Assembly (NCBI GenBank): GCA_035710125.1
Contig: DASTDY010000058.1
Span: 704 to 64,703, forward strand
Source of the DNA: Candidatus Saccharimonadales bacterium
GTDB lineage: Bacteria; Patescibacteriota; Saccharimonadia; Saccharimonadales; EFPC-124
Direction of reading: 5' to 3'
DNA: 64,000 nt
The notes beneath the pieces are model-generated. The model was given only the letters and a program-made list of their open reading frames with translations. It made no database searches and was not told the origin of the DNA. Shown here one piece after another: positions 12,915 through 20,101 of this stretch. The translations under genes and the position numbers were made by a program. Each line of letters starts with the position of its first letter. Positions within the stretch are counted from its first letter, which is position 1.

Positions 12915-13253
12915 TTAATGCTTTCTGGCTTCTTCTTTGGCACGACGCTTAGTGTCTTCGGTTGCCTCTTCGGTGCGGCCTCGGAGTTCGTCGGCTTTGT
13001 GCTTTGCGTTGCTTGCAAGTGCTTCTGCTTTCTCTTTAAGGTCTTCGGCGCGGTCTTTGGCGTCACCAACAACTTTATCGGTACGCTTTTTTAGCTCCTC
13101 GGCCTTACGTGAGGCATCTTTTTTGGCAGCCTCTGCCTTTGTTTTTAGTTCGGCGCGAGTATCTTTACCGCTTTTAGGCGCAGTAAGCAGTCCAGTAACA
13201 ACACCGGCTACTGCCCCAATAATCAAACCAAGGCCAAATCGCTTTTTAGACAT
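12915..13253 (-). CDS. YtxH-domain protein (general-stress-type, coiled-coil)
   Basis: N-terminus GLGLIIGAVAGVVTGLLTAPKSGKDTR followed by a Lys/Glu/Ala-rich helix. Confidence 0.7.
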   Translation of the reverse strand: MSKKRFGLGLIIGAVAGVVTGLLTAPKSGKDTRAELKTKAEAAKKDASRKAEELKKRTDKVVGDAKDRAEDLKEKAEALASNAKHKADELRGRTEEATEDTKRRAKEEARKH

Positions 13254-13255
13254 AT

Positions 13256-13522
13256 TTATTTCTCCTTTTCGTCTTTATTACGGCGCTTCATAAATCCTTG
13301 CAGTGTCTCCATAACAAAACGCGAAATCATAGCAGGCGCAGCAGTCTTGCCAATAAGGGACGCGATGTTTTCAAAATGCGACACAGTGCGTTGGGCAGCC
13401 TCTGTTACCGCTTTAATGCGCTTGGCAATAATTATCAGGTAAACAACTAGGACAATAGCTAGCAGTAAAAATATACCCAGAGCTGTCGATAAAAACACAA
13501 CTAGTATTTCAGTAGACGTCAT
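13256..13522 (-). CDS. DUF948-like small membrane protein
   Basis: A single N-terminal TM followed by a helical tail. Placed next to the YtxH gene, as in Firmicutes stress clusters. Confidence 0.45.
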   Translation of the reverse strand: MTSTEILVVFLSTALGIFLLLAIVLVVYLIIIAKRIKAVTEAAQRTVSHFENIASLIGKTAAPAMISRFVMETLQGFMKRRNKDEKEK

Positions 13523-13582
13523 AAGAAATCCGGTTCCTGTTTATTTATTTTTAGTATAACAGAAACACTAAGGATACAAAGC

Positions 13583-13840
13583 TTACGGTTTTGAGCCTTT
13601 AAATAATCGGGTGACTCCAAGCAGAACCACCGAACCAACAACGGCTACAAACAAGCTCCATAAATTGAAACCTGTCACGTCGGAGCCGCCAATAAGGCTA
13701 AACAAGAAACCACCAAGTAACCCGCCGATTATTCCTACTGCAATGTTTGCGCCAAGCCCCATAGATTCATCGCGGCCAGTCAAAATAGAAGCAATCCAAC
13801 CTGCAATGCCGCCTAAAACGATCCAACCAAATATCCCCAT
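13583..13840 (-). CDS. GlsB/YeaQ/YmgE-family (transglycosylase-associated) stress membrane protein
   Basis: MGIFGWIVLGGIAGWIASILTGR...GIIGGLLGGFLFSLIGG is the family signature. SD AAGGGGG lies upstream. Confidence 0.8.
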   Translation of the reverse strand: MGIFGWIVLGGIAGWIASILTGRDESMGLGANIAVGIIGGLLGGFLFSLIGGSDVTGFNLWSLFVAVVGSVVLLGVTRLFKGSKP

Positions 13841-13915
13841 ATTCCCCCTTTGCCTTTATGTTTATATGATACACTCAGGCTTCGTATAGAATAGGAGATT
13901 TCTTACAAGTTTTAA

Positions 13916-14812
13916 CTATTCGCAAATGGCCTTTTTAAGATGCTCACGGAACGCCTCGCCGATGTCCTCGCGGCGAAGGGCAAAATCTACTACTGTCTTC
14001 ATGTACTCTAGCTTATCGCCGGCGTCATAGTAACGCCCGTTAGTGATTTCGGCAGCAATCAATCGTTTGCCGTCATCCAACATTATTTTTAGCGCATCGT
14101 TATAATATAACTCTGCGCCCTCTTCCATGCTGTTTTGGGCTTTGTGCAGATAGCTAAAAATGTCTGGTGTAAGCAAAAAACCGCTCACAGTTGCCAGGTT
14201 GGATGGCGCTTTGTCTTTGCCTGGCTTTTCTATAACAGCCGTGCAGTCAATGACACCTGGCTCTAGCTGGGTGCCGGCTGCGAAACCATAGCGCGCATAA
14301 TCAGCATCTGATTTTGCTTGGATACCTGCAAGCACCGGCGCGTTGTACTTGGCATACAGATCTATAATTTGCTGGAACCGTGATGGTGTGGCGTCGATAA
14401 AATCGTCGCTCCAGGTGTAAATAAATGGTTCATCGCCTATCAAGTGCTCTACATTCAACAATGGCGTACCGTTGCCATAGGGCCCTTTTTGGCGCACGTA
14501 TACAAAATTTGCCATTTGGGACACCTGATCCACCATTTTAAGCAATGGTTCTTTTTTAGGCCCGCCCATTTTTAGGTTGGCCACTAAGTCGGCAGTTGGT
14601 GCGTCAAAATGGTCTTCTATGGCCCGCTTGGCTTGGCCGGTCACAATAATGATGTCTTTGATTCCGACAGACACGAGTTCTTCTACCACATGCTGGATAA
14701 TTGGTTTGTCTACCAATGGCAGCATCTCTTTAGGCATTGCTTTGGTCTGAGGCAAAAAACGAGTTCCGAAGCCAGCGGCAGCTATGACGGCCTTTGTTGG
14801 TAATTTGGTCAT
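13916..14812 (-). CDS. galU: UTP--glucose-1-phosphate uridylyltransferase
   Basis: KAVIAAAGFGTRFLPQTKAMPKEMLPLVDKPIIQHVVEE is the nucleotidyltransferase signature. 298 aa. Confidence 0.9.
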   Translation of the reverse strand: MTKLPTKAVIAAAGFGTRFLPQTKAMPKEMLPLVDKPIIQHVVEELVSVGIKDIIIVTGQAKRAIEDHFDAPTADLVANLKMGGPKKEPLLKMVDQVSQMANFVYVRQKGPYGNGTPLLNVEHLIGDEPFIYTWSDDFIDATPSRFQQIIDLYAKYNAPVLAGIQAKSDADYARYGFAAGTQLEPGVIDCTAVIEKPGKDKAPSNLATVSGFLLTPDIFSYLHKAQNSMEEGAELYYNDALKIMLDDGKRLIAAEITNGRYYDAGDKLEYMKTVVDFALRREDIGEAFREHLKKAICE

Positions 14813-14843: not shown

Positions 14844-16325
14844 TTACTGCACCCCGAGTTGTTTACGAATTATCTCGCTTAATTTGGCGGGGTTCGCCTT
14901 GCCTTTACTAGCCTTCATGGCCTGGCCCACCAAAAAACCAATCGCTTTCATTTCTCCTTTTATTACATCTTGCACCGCTTTCTGGTTTGCAGGTTCAGCT
15001 AGTACACCCGTAATGATTGCGTCTATGGCTTCTAGGTTATTTTCTTGTACAAAGCCTAATTCCTCGGCGAAATTTTTTACATTTGCGTCAGGCTTATGGC
15101 GGAGCGCGGCAAGCAGCGCATCGGCATTATTGGAATTTAGCTCGCCCGCTTTGCGCATTGCAAACACCTGTGCAAAGGCCTGTGCACTGGCTAACTTGCC
15201 GGCGTCTTTGCCTTCTTTTACAACAGATTCTACGTACGCAACATCGCGGTTTGCAATGTAGTTTGCAGCGAATACGGCGGCTTTAGGGTCATCTTGCGAA
15301 AGCACGGTCTGTACATACGTGGTACCGGTTAGGGCATCCCGTAAAATAAGGGTTTCGGCCGTTTTTTGGTCGATACCCTTGGCCTGGATTTCGGCCCTCA
15401 GCTCTGGGGGCAATTTAGGCATGTCCGCTTTAATACTTTCTATTTGGGCGGGAGTAAGTTCAACCGGGGGCACATCGGGTTCCGGAAAATACCTATAATC
15501 TTGTGCGTCTTCCTTGCTGCGCTGCGAAGTAGTCTTTTGTTTGGCTTCGTTCCAACCCCGTGTTTCTTGCACGACTTGTTCGCCTTTTTCGAGCAACTCA
15601 ATCTGCCGCGAAATCTCGTATTCAACAGCCCGTTCGACTGCGCGGAACGAGTTAAGGTTCTTGGTTTCTGTGCGTGTGCCCAGTGTAGCTGCACCTTTTT
15701 TAGCCACCGACACATTTACATCAAAACGCATGTTACCACGCGACAGGTCACCGAGTGTGACTCCGGCGTATTTCATGAGCAAATACAGCTCTTGCGCGTA
15801 CGATTTTGCTTGCAGTGCACTGTGCATATCTGGCTGGCTCACAATTTCGAGCAACGGCGTGCCTGCACGGTTAAAATCAACCAATGAATAGTCAGCCCCC
15901 GCTGGATGCGTTGACTTGCCGGCGTCTTCTTCTAGGTGGGCGTGGTGGATCCGTACTTTGAGTAAATCGTCACCCACCGGCACGCTAATCTCGCCAGCAA
16001 GCACAATTGGCCGGTCGAGCTGGGTGATCTGATAGCCTTTTGGTAAATCGGGATAAAAATAATGCTTGCGGTCAAAACTACTCACCAGGGCAATCTGGGC
16101 ATTCATAGCAAGCCCAGCGCGCACTGCTAAATCTAAGGCTTTTTTGTTAAGGACCGGCAGAGTTCCTGGCAGGCCAAAACAAAGTGGCGAGGTGACACTG
16201 TTTGGTGCTTTGTCTCGATCGTCGTTATCTACACCAGCAAACAGTTTAGTCTTAGTATTAAACTGAACATGGCATTCGATACCGATTGTTGGTTCATACG
16301 TGGCGGCTACTTCTTTACTAACCAT
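14844..16325 (-). CDS. gatB: Asp/Glu-tRNA(Asn/Gln) amidotransferase subunit B
   Basis: YEPTIGIECHVQFNTKTKLF, HHAHLEEDAGK and a C-terminal YqeY-like tail. Its ATG overlaps the upstream stop (TAATG at 16323-16327). Confidence 0.95.
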   Translation of the reverse strand: MVSKEVAATYEPTIGIECHVQFNTKTKLFAGVDNDDRDKAPNSVTSPLCFGLPGTLPVLNKKALDLAVRAGLAMNAQIALVSSFDRKHYFYPDLPKGYQITQLDRPIVLAGEISVPVGDDLLKVRIHHAHLEEDAGKSTHPAGADYSLVDFNRAGTPLLEIVSQPDMHSALQAKSYAQELYLLMKYAGVTLGDLSRGNMRFDVNVSVAKKGAATLGTRTETKNLNSFRAVERAVEYEISRQIELLEKGEQVVQETRGWNEAKQKTTSQRSKEDAQDYRYFPEPDVPPVELTPAQIESIKADMPKLPPELRAEIQAKGIDQKTAETLILRDALTGTTYVQTVLSQDDPKAAVFAANYIANRDVAYVESVVKEGKDAGKLASAQAFAQVFAMRKAGELNSNNADALLAALRHKPDANVKNFAEELGFVQENNLEAIDAIITGVLAEPANQKAVQDVIKGEMKAIGFLVGQAMKASKGKANPAKLSEIIRKQLGVQ

Positions 16326-16741
16326 TACATCGCTCCCAAATCTCTTAGGCCCGCCCTAAAACCACGCAAAGCTTGGTCGACTGAATACGCATTAAGCGGT
16401 ACATTTTGTTCGTGCGCTAGGCGGTTACGGAGTTTGTGTGCTTCCCACACGGCATTATTGTTCATAAAACTACCACGGGCGTTTTTAAGACGGTCGCCCA
16501 TTGTTTGGCCCGGGATCCCCCGATTTTTAAGCGCATGGTCGAGCAGTTTGTCTGCTTCAAAAATAGCTAACTGCCACCCTGCACTGCCCTGCGACTTAAA
16601 CGACTCAATCTTTTGCCATTGCTTTTTAAAGTATTCGTGGTCCAAACCGCTCCGGCGCTTGTTAAGCCCCCCGATGAGTGCAAAAAGCACCACAGCAACA
16701 ATAAGTACAACGGCGAGCATGACTAATGGCAGGTTATCCAC
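16325..16741 (-). CDS. membrane-anchored DUF4145/HEPN-like protein inserted between gatA and gatB
   Basis: N-terminal TM LPLVMLAVVLIVAVVLFALIGGL, then a helical domain ending AVWEAHKLRNRLAHE (Rx4H). Overlaps gatA by 8 nt and gatB by 1 nt. Confidence 0.5.
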   Translation of the reverse strand: MDNLPLVMLAVVLIVAVVLFALIGGLNKRRSGLDHEYFKKQWQKIESFKSQGSAGWQLAIFEADKLLDHALKNRGIPGQTMGDRLKNARGSFMNNNAVWEAHKLRNRLAHEQNVPLNAYSVDQALRGFRAGLRDLGAM

Positions 16742-18149
16742 GAACAGGTCCTTTCTCTAGTTGTTCGGCTACATCAAATAAAAGGCTGTCGCTTTTTTGA
16801 GCGCCAATAAGCTGTAGGCCGATTGGTAATTTCTTAGCATCTTCGCCCGCAGGCACGCTAAACGCGGGTAGTCCGGCTAGGCTTGCGGCCACCGTCATAA
16901 CATCTGCTAAATACATTTGGAGCGGGTCAGCTGTGTGCTCGCCTAGCTTAAAGGCTGTCGTAGGCGCAACCGGGCCAATCAGCACATCGTACCCTTCGTT
17001 AAAAACGGCCGCAAACTCGTTAATAAGTTTAGTCCGCACGGTTTGCGCCTTGCGGTAGTAGGCATCTATGAAACCACTGCTTAGCACGTACGTGCCTATT
17101 AAAATCCGGCGCTTGTTCTCGGCATTAAAACCTTGGTCGCGGGTTTTTCCATAAATATCTTGTAGGTCTTTTGCGTCGCTCGCGCTAAAGCCAAACTTTA
17201 TGCCGTCGTACCTACCGAGGTTGCTACTGATTTCTGCCGGCACAACAATATAATAAATTGCGAGCGCAGCCTCTACCGTAGGAACGCTTACGTCTTCTAC
17301 GGTGTGGCCGAGTGCACGAAGTTCTTCTGCCTTTTTGATTACTGCTTCTTTTACCTCTGGCTGAACGGCGTCGGTCATGTATTCTTTAATGATACCAATT
17401 TTTAGAGGTTCGCCGTGTGCCACCGCCGGCAAGCCCTTGCCAGGGAGCGTGGTGCTGTCTAGCGGATCCTGGCCAGCAATTATATGTGTAACTTGCCGCG
17501 CGTCTTCAACGCAGCTTGCCAATGGGCCAATTACATCTGTACTGCTCGCCATGGCGACTACTCCAAACCGAGAGACCGTGCCGTATGTAGGCTTAATACC
17601 CACCACGCCGCAAAAACTCGCAGGCTGGCGGATAGATCCACCTGTGTCACTGCCCAACGCAAAAGGTACAATCCCGAGCGCAACCACCGCGGCAGAGCCA
17701 CCCGAGCTACCGCCAGGCACCCGTGTCGCATCGTGCGGGTTCTTTGTGGCGCCAAAATCGCTATTTTCTGTACTGCCACCATGCGCAAATGCATCTAGGT
17801 TAGCTTTTGCCACCACGATAGCACCCTCGGCCTCGAGCTTCTGCACGGCAGTCGACTGATACGGAGCCTCAAACCCTCTTAAAATGTTACTTGCGGCAGT
17901 TGTTTCGCCACCAAACACCAAAAAATTATCTTTTACAATAAATGGTACGCCGGCTAGCTCGCCTACAGGTTCACCTGCCTTTATTTTGGCATCGATAATA
18001 TCTGCGCGTGCAAGCGCCGCATCCGTAAGTACACTTAAGGTAGCGTTGTATTCTTTTGCGTCGGCGATTTTTTGCAACGTTTCTTCTATAACAGCGCGGA
18101 CTGTGCGACCTTTAGCAATCTGGGCTTTAATATCAGCAATCGTAATCAT
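16734..18149 (-). CDS. gatA: Glu-tRNA(Gln) amidotransferase subunit A
   Basis: Amidase signature GGSSGGSAAVVA...GSDTGGSIRQPASFCG. 471 aa. Confidence 0.95.
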   Translation of the reverse strand: MITIADIKAQIAKGRTVRAVIEETLQKIADAKEYNATLSVLTDAALARADIIDAKIKAGEPVGELAGVPFIVKDNFLVFGGETTAASNILRGFEAPYQSTAVQKLEAEGAIVVAKANLDAFAHGGSTENSDFGATKNPHDATRVPGGSSGGSAAVVALGIVPFALGSDTGGSIRQPASFCGVVGIKPTYGTVSRFGVVAMASSTDVIGPLASCVEDARQVTHIIAGQDPLDSTTLPGKGLPAVAHGEPLKIGIIKEYMTDAVQPEVKEAVIKKAEELRALGHTVEDVSVPTVEAALAIYYIVVPAEISSNLGRYDGIKFGFSASDAKDLQDIYGKTRDQGFNAENKRRILIGTYVLSSGFIDAYYRKAQTVRTKLINEFAAVFNEGYDVLIGPVAPTTAFKLGEHTADPLQMYLADVMTVAASLAGLPAFSVPAGEDAKKLPIGLQLIGAQKSDSLLFDVAEQLEKGPVRG

Positions 18150-18439
18150 AGTACCTTCGGAACCTCAATGTAGCCGCCAGCGTGAGTATGTGGTGCGTTT
18201 TTTAAGAGTGAATCGCGCGAGGTGCCATAGTTAATAATTGCGTCATCGCGCGATACATTCTTTAAGCCTGTTACCTGGTAGGTGGGCTCGAGGCCGGTTG
18301 TATCAATGGCCTCGAGCTTTTGCACATACCCTAAAATCGTCCCAAGCTCTTTAGTAAGTTGAGTTGCCTCTTGATCAGTTATGGCAATTTTGGCCAACGA
18401 CGCCACGTATCTGACGTCTTTAAGAGTAATGTCGTTCAT
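18146..18439 (-). CDS. gatC: Asp/Glu-tRNA amidotransferase subunit C
   Basis: 97 aa. VRYVASLAKIAITDQEATQLTKELGTILGYVQKLEAIDT. Overlaps gatA by 4 nt. Confidence 0.9.
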   Translation of the reverse strand: MNDITLKDVRYVASLAKIAITDQEATQLTKELGTILGYVQKLEAIDTTGLEPTYQVTGLKNVSRDDAIINYGTSRDSLLKNAPHTHAGGYIEVPKVL

Positions 18440-18478: not shown

Positions 18479-19321
18479 CTAATAGTTGTTGAGAATATCT
18501 TTAAGCTCTTCTGCAGATGGTGCGCCTTGTTGTGGCATATTCTGCAAGAAGTCGTCGCCACCGCCACCGGCACCAGGCATAGTTGGCACTGTGGAGCCAG
18601 GGTAACCGCCAGGGTTCTCAATGGTCTCGGGTTTCTTATGGAATGTAATGACTGAACCAACAAACAGGGCAACTGCCAAAAGAAGGCCAAGAACAGCTAC
18701 GCCTAGATCATACATTTTGCCCATGTCTTTACCTTTTGCAAGCTTAAAGAGGTAGAATGCTGAACAGCTTACAATGATTGTCACGCCGACCAAAGGCAAG
18801 AATTCGTTAATGTACACTTGGCCCACATTTACATTCTCGACGCCAATCAAAGCGAGCGAGGTGAGCACAATAGTCAATAGCTGAACAACCAGGCCAACCT
18901 TAATAGCAACCAATACGCCTAAAGTAGTGTAAATCGGAGCCTTGTACGCAATCCTACTGGTATATTCAGGACGTTTTGCAATTTCGGCACGAGTACGGCG
19001 GCCGAGCAACGCCATAAGAGGTACAAGCACAACTAGCGCTGCGACCATACCAACAGCCATTGTCGCCTCTAGCCAAGGAATGTTTGAACCCATAATTGGA
19101 CTTGCTGCGCCCATAGCAAGCGGCGAAGCCATAGAAGACCCGCCAGACCACAAGCTAATAAGTGATAGCGAGCCAGTCGCAATCAAAAGAGTCACTACCA
19201 ACACAAGAAGCATGTAGCCGATGTGCTCGAGCGTTAAAAAGGTTGCCCCGTTCAGCTCGCGCTTAAAAAACGAGCCTCCTGCCGATACCGGCGCTGTCTT
19301 TACTATTTTATCTTCTGCCAT
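18479..19321 (-). CDS. multi-pass membrane protein with Gly/Pro-rich C-terminal tail
   Basis: 280 aa, about 6 hydrophobic segments, tail GGYPGSTVPTMPGAGGGGDDFLQNMPQQGAPSAEELKDILNNY. Confidence 0.55.
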   Translation of the reverse strand: MAEDKIVKTAPVSAGGSFFKRELNGATFLTLEHIGYMLLVLVVTLLIATGSLSLISLWSGGSSMASPLAMGAASPIMGSNIPWLEATMAVGMVAALVVLVPLMALLGRRTRAEIAKRPEYTSRIAYKAPIYTTLGVLVAIKVGLVVQLLTIVLTSLALIGVENVNVGQVYINEFLPLVGVTIIVSCSAFYLFKLAKGKDMGKMYDLGVAVLGLLLAVALFVGSVITFHKKPETIENPGGYPGSTVPTMPGAGGGGDDFLQNMPQQGAPSAEELKDILNNY

Positions 19322-19357: not shown

Positions 19358-20101
19358 CTAGTAGTTGTACATGTCGTAATAAGGGTCGCTGCTGTATGGA
19401 TCGCTGTATGGATCCGACATAGGCGCCTGGATTGGTGGTGTTTTCTTGGTTGGTTCACTCGTTTTACCTTGGGCAACCGACGACCACGCGTATGTTATGC
19501 CTGCGAGTAAAACGGTAGCTACTGCGACTCCCCACAGACATAGGCGAATGTGTTTGCGGCGCTCAGGCTTCGCCATGACAACGAACATACCAAGCAAGGT
19601 TAGTACAGTCCAAAGCACAGCCGGTAAGCTGGTGCTTATAAGTACATGCCCAACCGAACCTGAATTAGTAATAGCCGCTGCGATTGGCACGTATATTGCA
19701 ACCGCCAGGGTAATGATTGCTTGTAGGCCACTCAAAACCAGCCAAAAGCTCCTAAAACCTTGCGCTCCACCTCGTGGCATTTCGCCCTTATAGGTAGTAG
19801 TGAGTTCACCGTTAGTACGGCTCCATAAAACGGCCGTTACTGGCATAGAGATTAACGACAAAATTGCCACCCATAGCACCACGAGCGATGTCGGGAAAAA
19901 GCTCTCTGATCCGCCGCTTGCCATTAAACCAGTGAGCACGCTCACGAGCCACATAAGGCTCCCGAGCACAATGGTGAGGCCGATCAAAAATATACTGTAT
20001 TCGGCAACAAATGCATTGCTTGTGCGCGCAAGATTTAACTTAAACTTGGAACCTGCAGGTGTTTGCGGCGAAACAGCTGGTTGGGTTTGGTCTGTATCCA
20101 T
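19358..20101 (-). CDS. multi-pass membrane protein with Tyr/Asp/Pro-rich C-terminal tail
   Basis: 247 aa. Architecture resembles the neighbouring gene. Tail MSDPYSDPYSSDPYYDMYNY. Confidence 0.55.
   Translation of the reverse strand: MDTDQTQPAVSPQTPAGSKFKLNLARTSNAFVAEYSIFLIGLTIVLGSLMWLVSVLTGLMASGGSESFFPTSLVVLWVAILSLISMPVTAVLWSRTNGELTTTYKGEMPRGGAQGFRSFWLVLSGLQAIITLAVAIYVPIAAAITNSGSVGHVLISTSLPAVLWTVLTLLGMFVVMAKPERRKHIRLCLWGVAVATVLLAGITYAWSSVAQGKTSEPTKKTPPIQAPMSDPYSDPYSSDPYYDMYNY

Follow-up and report, generated by a model that had tools for sequence, protein, structure and literature searches.

The DNA considered here, a window of 64,000 nucleotides from contig DASTDY010000058.1 of a Candidatus Saccharimonadales bacterium, carries on its minus strand the genes of the tRNA-dependent amidotransferase GatCAB, together with a small additional gene, here called X, which lies between gatA and gatB and encodes a HEPN-domain protein with a predicted membrane anchor. 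The unit is opened by gatC (18146..18439; 97 aa; PF02686 GatC, E 2.7e-18), followed by gatA (16734..18149; 471 aa; PF01425 Amidase, E 1.3e-140), whose protein ends in GPVRG, then by X (16325..16741; 138 aa in the list of open reading frames (ORFs), with a GTG start and a TAA stop), and is closed by gatB (14844..16325; 493 aa; PF02934 (GatB_N), E 2.9e-110, and PF02637 (GatB_Yqey), E 6e-23). X overlaps gatA by 8 nt (GTGGATAA), its GTG sitting within the final gatA codons, and the minus strand across this junction reads GAGAAAGGACCTGTTCGTGGATAACCTG. At its 3' end, GGAGCGATGTAATGGTT, the TAA stop of X and the ATG start of gatB share one base in a TAATG junction (16323..16327, minus strand). An earlier note on this DNA, made from the letters alone, had described a 138-aa gene with exactly these two junctions, and direct reading of the sequence bears it out in every detail. 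The flanking gat genes it named are likewise real, but its premise that gatCAB is normally contiguous is a generalisation; in Mycobacterium tuberculosis, pfkA presumably lies between gatA and gatB.

The translation signals of X and gatB are interleaved with the coding sequence that precedes each of them. A Shine-Dalgarno-like GAAAGGA lies within the 3' end of gatA on the minus strand (16749..16755, positions -14 to -8 from the GTG by direct reading), and an MD[SN] N-terminus is kept in homologues; together these support the GTG start, and an internal ATG at codon 8, which has no Shine-Dalgarno sequence, was ruled out as the start on the same two grounds. The Shine-Dalgarno sequence of gatB, GGGAG (16333-16337, within the region 16331-16339, minus strand; -12 to -8 from the ATG), falls inside the last X codons and overlies the conserved C-terminal Leu-Gly-Ala codons, and part of the C-terminal conservation of X could be shared with this signal. 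Counter to that explanation, loci in which lgt is the next gene conserve the LGAL motif too. Between gatC, gatA, X and gatB there is no promoter-like or terminator-like site above the level seen in shuffled sequence, so co-transcription of the four genes is likely, and X would then be made from the GatCAB mRNA by translational coupling. The earlier note had held that X must be co-expressed with gatCAB; the tight overlaps behind that statement stand, while the co-expression itself is better described as likely than as necessary.

A search with the window protein recovered 289 close homologues of about 138 aa, nearly all of 135-141 aa, which are labelled Saccharimonadales or ‘hypothetical protein’ and none of which has a Pfam domain. 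Exhaustive searching by HMMER with a profile of 36 sequences extended the family to 3012 clusters (50% identity, E<=1e-3), 2180 of them with E<=1e-10, and a profile built from distant members found at least 3823 proteins, which bear the names Patescibacteria or Uhrbacteria and likewise lack Pfam domains. The source names of the homologues are Saccharimonadales, Uhrbacteria and Patescibacteria group; X represents, in Saccharibacteria, an old family that spans Patescibacteria and for which Pfam has no model. Three sequences with gatA-X-gatB of the Saccharibacteria type, or with X (L003, on DATLJN010000125.1, P0281 and P0312), come from metagenome-assembled genomes labelled Magnetospirillaceae, Verrucomicrobiae or Methylomirabilis, and these labels are probably binning errors rather than occurrences outside Patescibacteria. 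One member of 521 aa (P0263) continues from the transmembrane-HEPN module into a second hydrophobic segment, PKD and bacterial TSP3 repeats and a C-terminal transmembrane segment, and is either a true fusion of HEPN to an extracellular domain or a fusion of gene calls. The small size of X and its GTG start are all that speaks for a chance ORF or annotation artefact, and with thousands of homologues of conserved length and motifs, a confident fold and a Shine-Dalgarno sequence of its own, the probability of this is practically nil.

Ordinary annotation searches pass the family by. Single-sequence searches of Pfam, NCBIfam, PADLOC and the PDB with the window protein gave nothing meaningful, scans of NCBIfam and PHROGs with the family consensus gave no match, a tblastn search of plasmids with the consensus gave a single match, which was insignificant, and searches of PDB sequences with the profiles of alignments A1 and A5 gave chance matches only, e.g. 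ATCase, RanGAP and S20. AlphaFold2 modelled the full protein with a mean predicted local distance difference test (pLDDT) of 89.8, as a transmembrane helix (residues 4-27), a disordered linker and a helical bundle, and residues 30-138 alone with a pLDDT of 95.2 and a predicted template-modelling score of 0.88; the modelled helices span residues 35-51, 53-73, 81-87 (a short insert helix), 95-110 and 118-135. When the soluble model was compared with the PDB by Foldseek, the top 17 matches were all HEPN proteins, and HEPN proteins filled about the first 15-17 ranks for both models. The matches include the HepT toxins 6m6w, 7bxo, 8xdj, 8yuf and 5yep, AF_0298 (2hsb), 1wty, HI0074 (1jog) and 4nqf, with probabilities of 0.66-1.0 and query-normalised template-modelling scores of 0.44-0.69. 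A fold search of BFVD returned one unnamed viral protein of the same fold (template-modelling score 0.73) and otherwise nothing interpretable.

Profile comparisons point to the same superfamily. The family consensus matched the PADLOC models CARF2--CARF_HEPN (E 3.9e-5, over profile positions 299-368 of 382, in the HEPN half at the C-terminal end of the model) and CARF_m10--CARF_HEPN (E 2e-4), and the CARF_HEPN model was matched individually by nine of 47 natural members (E 0.001-0.014). In Pfam the window protein itself has no match, the top match of the consensus is a weak one to HEPN_Swt1 (E 0.03, 15 bits), and Hypoth_Ymh is touched by two of the 47 diverse members. Anantharaman et al. (2013; PMC3710099) define HEPN domains by four bundled helices, the second and third of which are separated by an insert, by an Rx4-6H motif lying where helix 3 ends or the loop to helix 4 begins, by a polar residue that follows the R, and by a conserved acidic residue of helix 2 near the motif, often within Ex3[KR]; all four features are found in the X model. 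We conclude that X is a new family without a Pfam model within the HEPN superfamily, with the HEPN fold occupying about residues 33-136 (16334..16645, minus strand), which are predicted to lie on the cytoplasmic side. The HEPN fold proposed in the earlier note thus holds up, while its likening of the protein to DUF4145 does not: neither the window protein nor the family consensus matches PF13643 (DUF4145) at E<=10, PF13643 is not among the 25 best of the 87 Pfam families matched in a scan of the 47 diverse members at E<=1, and membership is not supported by any hidden Markov model test run. The DUF4145 label attached to this kind of protein comes solely from a language-model guess, described below. 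No DUF4145 protein is annotated near the hsd/mcr/symE locus of Escherichia coli K-12.

The activity characteristic of the HEPN superfamily is that of a metal-independent endoribonuclease (RNase) leaving a 2',3'-cyclic phosphate, and the residues on which such an activity would depend are well kept in X. The motif quoted by the earlier note, NNNAVWEAHKLRNRLAHE, is present, and the wider stretch H102-K-L-R105-N106-R-L-A-H110 (16412..16438, minus strand) is of the Rx4H type, has the polar N directly after the R, and sits at the C-terminus of core helix 3. In the model R105-N106-x3-H110 closes the helix 95-110, and D64 and D68 lie within helix 53-73, in an acidic patch E62-A-D64-K65-L-L-D68 (16538..16558, minus strand) picked out by conservation and continued by D68-x3-K72; H102, R105, N106 and H110 would thereby face the two helix-2 acids in a putative catalytic-type site. 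Across 47 diverse members W42, D64, G78, W99 and H102 are invariant, and conservation reaches 90% or more at A59, A63, K65, L66, D68, L71, R84, R105, N106 and H110; in alignment A5, R105, N106 and H110 are invariant. H..RN...H occurs in 374 of 381 sampled family members (98%), and the motif is retained at 167 of 171 loci (L001-L171). The Rx4-6H signature noticed in the first reading of the sequence is therefore at the position that defines the superfamily, and its retention at this level argues, on conservation grounds, that the catalytic-type site matters in most lineages.

The anchor at the N-terminus, which had also been noticed, is equally a property of the family. Residues 4-27 (16661..16732, minus strand) form the hydrophobic helix of the model, in which a segment of about 22 hydrophobic residues is preceded by the acidic stub MDN and followed by NKRRSG. 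Of 381 family members, 323 have a 19-residue stretch with a Kyte-Doolittle mean of at least 1.6. Over the family, the residues ahead of the helix, four in the median, carry a net charge of -0.6, and those behind it one of +2.5. By the positive-inside rule this charge asymmetry would place the HEPN domain in the cytoplasm, and X is accordingly predicted to be an N-out/C-in signal anchor that keeps the domain near the membrane. A cleaved signal peptide with a secreted domain was considered and ruled out from the length of the segment, its acidic N-side, its strongly basic C-side and the lack of an AxA-type site.

The place of X beside the gat genes is probably old. A scan of GTDB found relatives in at least 588 species, and gatC-gatA-X-gatB was present at all 80 of the GTDB loci fetched, including those of oral TM7 genomes (the complete genome CP128407 and Nanogingivalis); gatA-X-gatB was present at 66 of 80 metagenome loci, most of the other 14 ending at contig edges, and distant classes keep X beside gatA or gatB. 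Among the 138 loci having all three genes, gatA and X overlap by 1-11 nt in 125, and the X-gatB spacing is -11 to +1 nt in 121, of which 91 overlap. X is single-copy at every locus examined. Median identities to the respective window proteins are 44% for both X and GatC, 59% for GatA and 52% for GatB; by this measure X appears to diverge as fast as GatC, a true subunit. We propose that X has been carried in or beside a gatC-gatA-(X)-gatB unit since before the Patescibacteria classes diverged. The earlier note had foreseen that its reading would fall if the insert were lineage-wide and belonged to a known unrelated family; lineage-wide it is, but the family matched is HEPN, and thus not an unrelated one.

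This distribution bears directly on the suggestion that X is a HEPN toxin of the abortive-infection or toxin–antitoxin type, or a defence module, inserted into gatCAB. Toxins and defence effectors make up most of the bacterial HEPN families (PMC3710099), and the nearest structural matches of X are the HepT toxins of MntA-HepT (DUF86-type) systems, such as those of Shewanella SO_3166 (5yep, 6m6w, 7bxo) and Aphanizomenon (7ae6), with which it has in common an all-alpha HEPN bundle of about 110-130 residues and an Rx4H at the end of helix 3. Unlike these toxins, X has a transmembrane anchor, has no MNT neighbour and is universal in its lineage as part of a chromosomal housekeeping operon; sequence identity is only 13-15%, and where the HepT motif is RX4HXY, X has RNRLAHEQ, with H-E-Q and no Tyr after the H. 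Membership of the MntA-HepT group is therefore contradicted both by the gatA and gatB neighbours of the Saccharibacteria loci and by the missing Y. At the window and the fetched loci there is no MNT, antitoxin, CARF or restriction–modification neighbour, and no cas genes occur at the annotated loci; PADLOC has no match for the window protein and, for diverse members, mostly weak HEPN-domain matches with scattered single ones. X also evolves slowly, stands single-copy in its fixed position throughout a class, in at least 588 GTDB species, and has a presumed counterpart in Southlakia epibionticum whose insertion mutants were, in the published tables described below, lost rather than favoured. 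X is not a mobile toxin or defence module, and on these several grounds the association with conflict systems in the earlier note is its least supported element; we regard a toxin or defence role of any sort as very improbable.

Looser arrangements of the locus are seen in the more distant lineages, and these are relevant to a second alternative, in which X is an operon passenger with an envelope or membrane role, for example a small sensor or nucleotide-binding HEPN at the cytoplasmic face, whose adjacency to gatA is a historical accident kept by synteny and tight packing. In Uhrbacteria-like genomes the order is ligA-...-gatC-gatA-X-lgt-trxB-dsbA, with X packed equally tightly against envelope genes, and another member (L084) is packed against rlmH-htrA; the P0263 protein described above joins the module to an extracellular PKD/TSP3 region, and gene overlaps are common in these genomes generally. 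Weighing the other way are the conserved catalytic-type motif and the recurrence of the gat linkage across six or more sequence subfamilies whose other neighbours differ, which, at 35-45% identity, is more than the usual inertia of gene order would give; gatA-X pairing is found in three further subfamilies (L081, L083 and L174). A mere passenger is accordingly a rather unlikely explanation.

Several individual loci deserve mention in this connection. The Uhrbacteria-like order was read at L085 (4267-9862), L086 (4012-10831) and L082 (144-3018) as ligA-...-gatC-gatA-X-lgt-trxB-dsbA-dsbA, where gatB is not adjacent, and in L082 X and lgt overlap by 4 nt. At L173 (3541-7880) a cyclophilin-type peptidyl-prolyl isomerase (PPIase) lies between gatA and X (ligA-gatC-gatA-PPIase-X-gatB), followed by two N_methyl (pilin-like) genes. 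L084 (4378-5860) has a 208-aa protein without a Pfam domain, X, rlmH, htrA and carA, and L087 (2890-6420) has ligA-BroN-X where other lineages have ligA-gatC-gatA-X, so that gatCA may have been lost or moved there. Some Saccharibacteria loci have an extra 0.5-2.7 kb between X and gatB (L010 5339-5853, L037 5429-6007, L136 377-3099 and L144 5411-6250).

A genetically tractable relative offers some functional data. In S. epibionticum, Wang et al. (2023; PMC10633639) list SEML1_0535, a protein of 139 aa without a Pfam match encoded between gatA and gatB, which their Table S1 flags as a core family and as Patescibacteria-enriched (both = 1, in the families of Meheust et al.). The DPAM assignment of SEML1_0535 is the HEPN-fold domain ECOD e1wtyA1 (PMC10633639), and Table S2 gives the ProtNLM guess ‘DUF4145 domain-containing protein’ (0.98), a language-model prediction. 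Its position, length, DPAM HEPN fold and 1-nt overlap with gatB, which is as in the window, suggest that SEML1_0535 is the counterpart of X; its overlap with gatA is 4 nt as against 8 nt in the window. In the transposon-insertion sequencing (Tn-seq) entries of that source the gene is called growth-defect, growth-defect and essential (GD/GD/ES), its insertions falling from eight in the input DNA to five, three and one, and its normalised reads from 127 to 5.9 and then 2.8 (PMC10633639). The tables also list RNase Y (SEML1_0712) and RNase J, and, as far as their listed entries go, contain no asparagine-tRNA or glutamine-tRNA ligase (PMC10633639). Targeted literature searches found no description of the X protein, the only traces being automated labels in a supplementary table.

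Among known proteins, close parallels to the architecture of X are bacterial HEPN domains linked to a transmembrane segment, namely DUF4145 proteins with a ‘WP’ single-transmembrane N-domain and Abi2/Swt1-type HEPN domains behind a transmembrane helix, for which Anantharaman et al. predicted RNA processing at the inner membrane face (PMC3710099, section 15). X resembles them in that its one transmembrane helix leads into a HEPN domain which is predicted to be cytoplasmic and looks catalytically intact; it differs in having no extracytoplasmic or extra N-terminal domain and no PF13643 match, and the transmembrane segment of its family has no conserved W-P in alignments A1 and A3, which sets it apart from the DUF4145 members. 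Those families are, moreover, sporadic and associated with conflict or signalling, whereas X is core and syntenic in Patescibacteria. The CARF-HEPN proteins (Csm6/Csx1 of type III CRISPR systems) provide the best profile matches of the consensus, in the HEPN half of their models, but X consists of a transmembrane helix and a HEPN domain only, has neither a CARF sensor nor a CRISPR context, and does not belong with them. In eukaryotes Ire1 and C6orf70 likewise hold a HEPN/KEN RNase at the cytosolic membrane face on one transmembrane segment (PMC3710099); unlike Ire1, X has no lumenal sensor or kinase domain, and there is no sign of homology beyond the superfamily level.

Two further comparisons concern function rather than fold. 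The transamidation machinery has taxon-restricted extras elsewhere, such as Hp0100 of Helicobacter pylori and the mitochondrial GatF, which have no sequence or fold relationship to X. RNase Y has the same topology, an N-terminal transmembrane anchor and then a cytoplasmic endoribonuclease (a predicted activity in the case of X), and X was considered as a replacement for this membrane-anchored decay nuclease. RNase Y is built on KH and HD domains, unlike X, and is present already in Saccharibacteria, as SEML1_0712 in the S. epibionticum tables, so X is not simply its replacement; with RNase J also encoded by S. epibionticum, this was dropped as the main idea.

What can be taken as established is the X gene itself, its fold, motif and conservation, its tight spacing to gatA and gatB, and the depletion of S. 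epibionticum mutants with insertions in the gene at the same position. On this footing we give a probability of roughly one half to X being a housekeeping, membrane-tethered HEPN RNase or RNA-binding module that is co-produced with GatCAB. X would be a single-pass inner-membrane protein with a short external N-terminus and a minimal cytoplasmic HEPN domain of about 105 residues, probably dimeric by analogy with other HEPN RNases, which at the cytoplasmic membrane face would act as a metal-independent endoribonuclease, or at least as a phosphate- or RNA-binding module. Its most plausible substrates would be tRNAs or other RNAs tied to the transamidation pathway.

A number of points weigh against this. 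HEPN RNases left without regulation are usually toxic, and nothing that would regulate X is evident. A general role in mRNA decay is not obviously vacant, because Saccharibacteria encode both the membrane-anchored RNase Y and RNase J. The Foldseek E-values are weak (0.06-0.6), and the Pfam match to HEPN_Swt1, at 15 bits, is below the gathering score of 27.5. SEML1_0535 is equated with X from its location, its length and its fold annotation, and its depletion in the published Tn-seq data could be a polar effect on the essential downstream gatB. Two distant members (L084 and L087) have no gat neighbour, so the linkage to GatCAB is not obligatory. Finally, a rare Saccharibacteria subclade (P0238, P0207, P0195, P0199, P0218 and P0244) lacks R, N or H residues of the motif, P0238 having WFAHKLKKRIVMEE and another member WFGHKLRSKIEAE, and yet P0238 (L170) and P0207 (L168) are still encoded between gatA and gatB with the usual overlaps; because the gene is kept in place there, the function retained in that subclade would be independent of catalysis. 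The X genes of this subclade lie at L170 3362-3814, L171 840-1292, L168 905-1333 and L169 895-1323, with 4-nt overlaps.

The subclade would be accommodated if X is a non-catalytic, lineage-specific accessory subunit, the fourth of GatCAB or of a transamidosome, its HEPN surface holding tRNA or GatCAB at the membrane, in one variant so as to channel Gln-tRNA or Asn-tRNA, or the amide donor, and its R, N and H residues binding phosphate without cleaving RNA. Such a subunit would also fit the persistence of linkage to gatA and/or gatB in very distant subfamilies while other neighbours change, an evolutionary rate equal to that of GatC, and gene overlaps that suggest stoichiometric co-production; GatCAB is, besides, probably indispensable in S. 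epibionticum, since no asparagine-tRNA or glutamine-tRNA ligase appears among the entries of its tables. Set against this are the full H..RN...H kept by 98% of members, where non-catalytic HEPN domains usually lose the motif (PMC3710099), the normal length and domain content of GatC, GatA and GatB, in which nothing seems to be missing, and again the members without gat neighbours. We consider a purely non-catalytic accessory role doubtful. A more far-reaching proposal can be offered only tentatively: X may be a fourth, Patescibacteria-specific component of transamidation, a membrane-tethered HEPN module which binds tRNAGln, tRNAAsn or some related RNA and, in most lineages, also cuts or trims it, and/or which holds GatCAB at the membrane.

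The surroundings of the operon in the window may be described briefly. Upstream of gatC, two adjacent genes encode multi-pass membrane proteins of 280 aa (18479-19321, minus strand) and 247 aa (19358-20101, minus strand), both with low-complexity C-termini and no Pfam match. Downstream of gatB, the interval 12915-14812 (minus strand) encodes a GalU-like NTP_transferase, a Transgly_assoc protein, an 88-aa protein with no assigned family and a YtxH protein. The order of the NTP transferase, the small protein and YtxH is similar in S. epibionticum (SEML1_0533-0531) and in L170, which points to extended synteny in Saccharibacteria.

The HEPN fold class and transmembrane-linked HEPN proteins are already known (PMC3710099, section 15), while a core, phylum-wide and probably essential HEPN gene in a tRNA amidotransferase operon seems to be new, being undescribed in the literature searched. 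With this, a ‘Patescibacteria-enriched’ dark-matter family gains a fold, an active site, a topology and a genetic partner, all of which are testable in the tractable Southlakia and Nanosynbacter. To our knowledge, bacterial HEPN domains have been met almost exclusively in toxins, in abortive-infection systems and among CRISPR effectors, whereas the one described here looks catalytically intact and belongs to a core, probably essential gene across a huge radiation of ultrasmall symbionts, fixed in an aminoacyl-tRNA operon. Should X be an active RNase, it would be a new, Patescibacteria-specific housekeeping RNA-processing enzyme, and should it partner GatCAB, the picture of Gln-tRNA and Asn-tRNA synthesis in Patescibacteria would change, the more so as the Southlakia tables, listing neither ligase among their entries, suggest that transamidation may be the only route to Gln-tRNA and Asn-tRNA. 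If X were indeed a fourth transamidation component, it would tie the repair of aminoacyl-tRNAs in these ultrasmall symbionts to a process close to the membrane, and would provide both the first bacterial HEPN enzyme with an essential housekeeping role and the first transamidosome located at a membrane.

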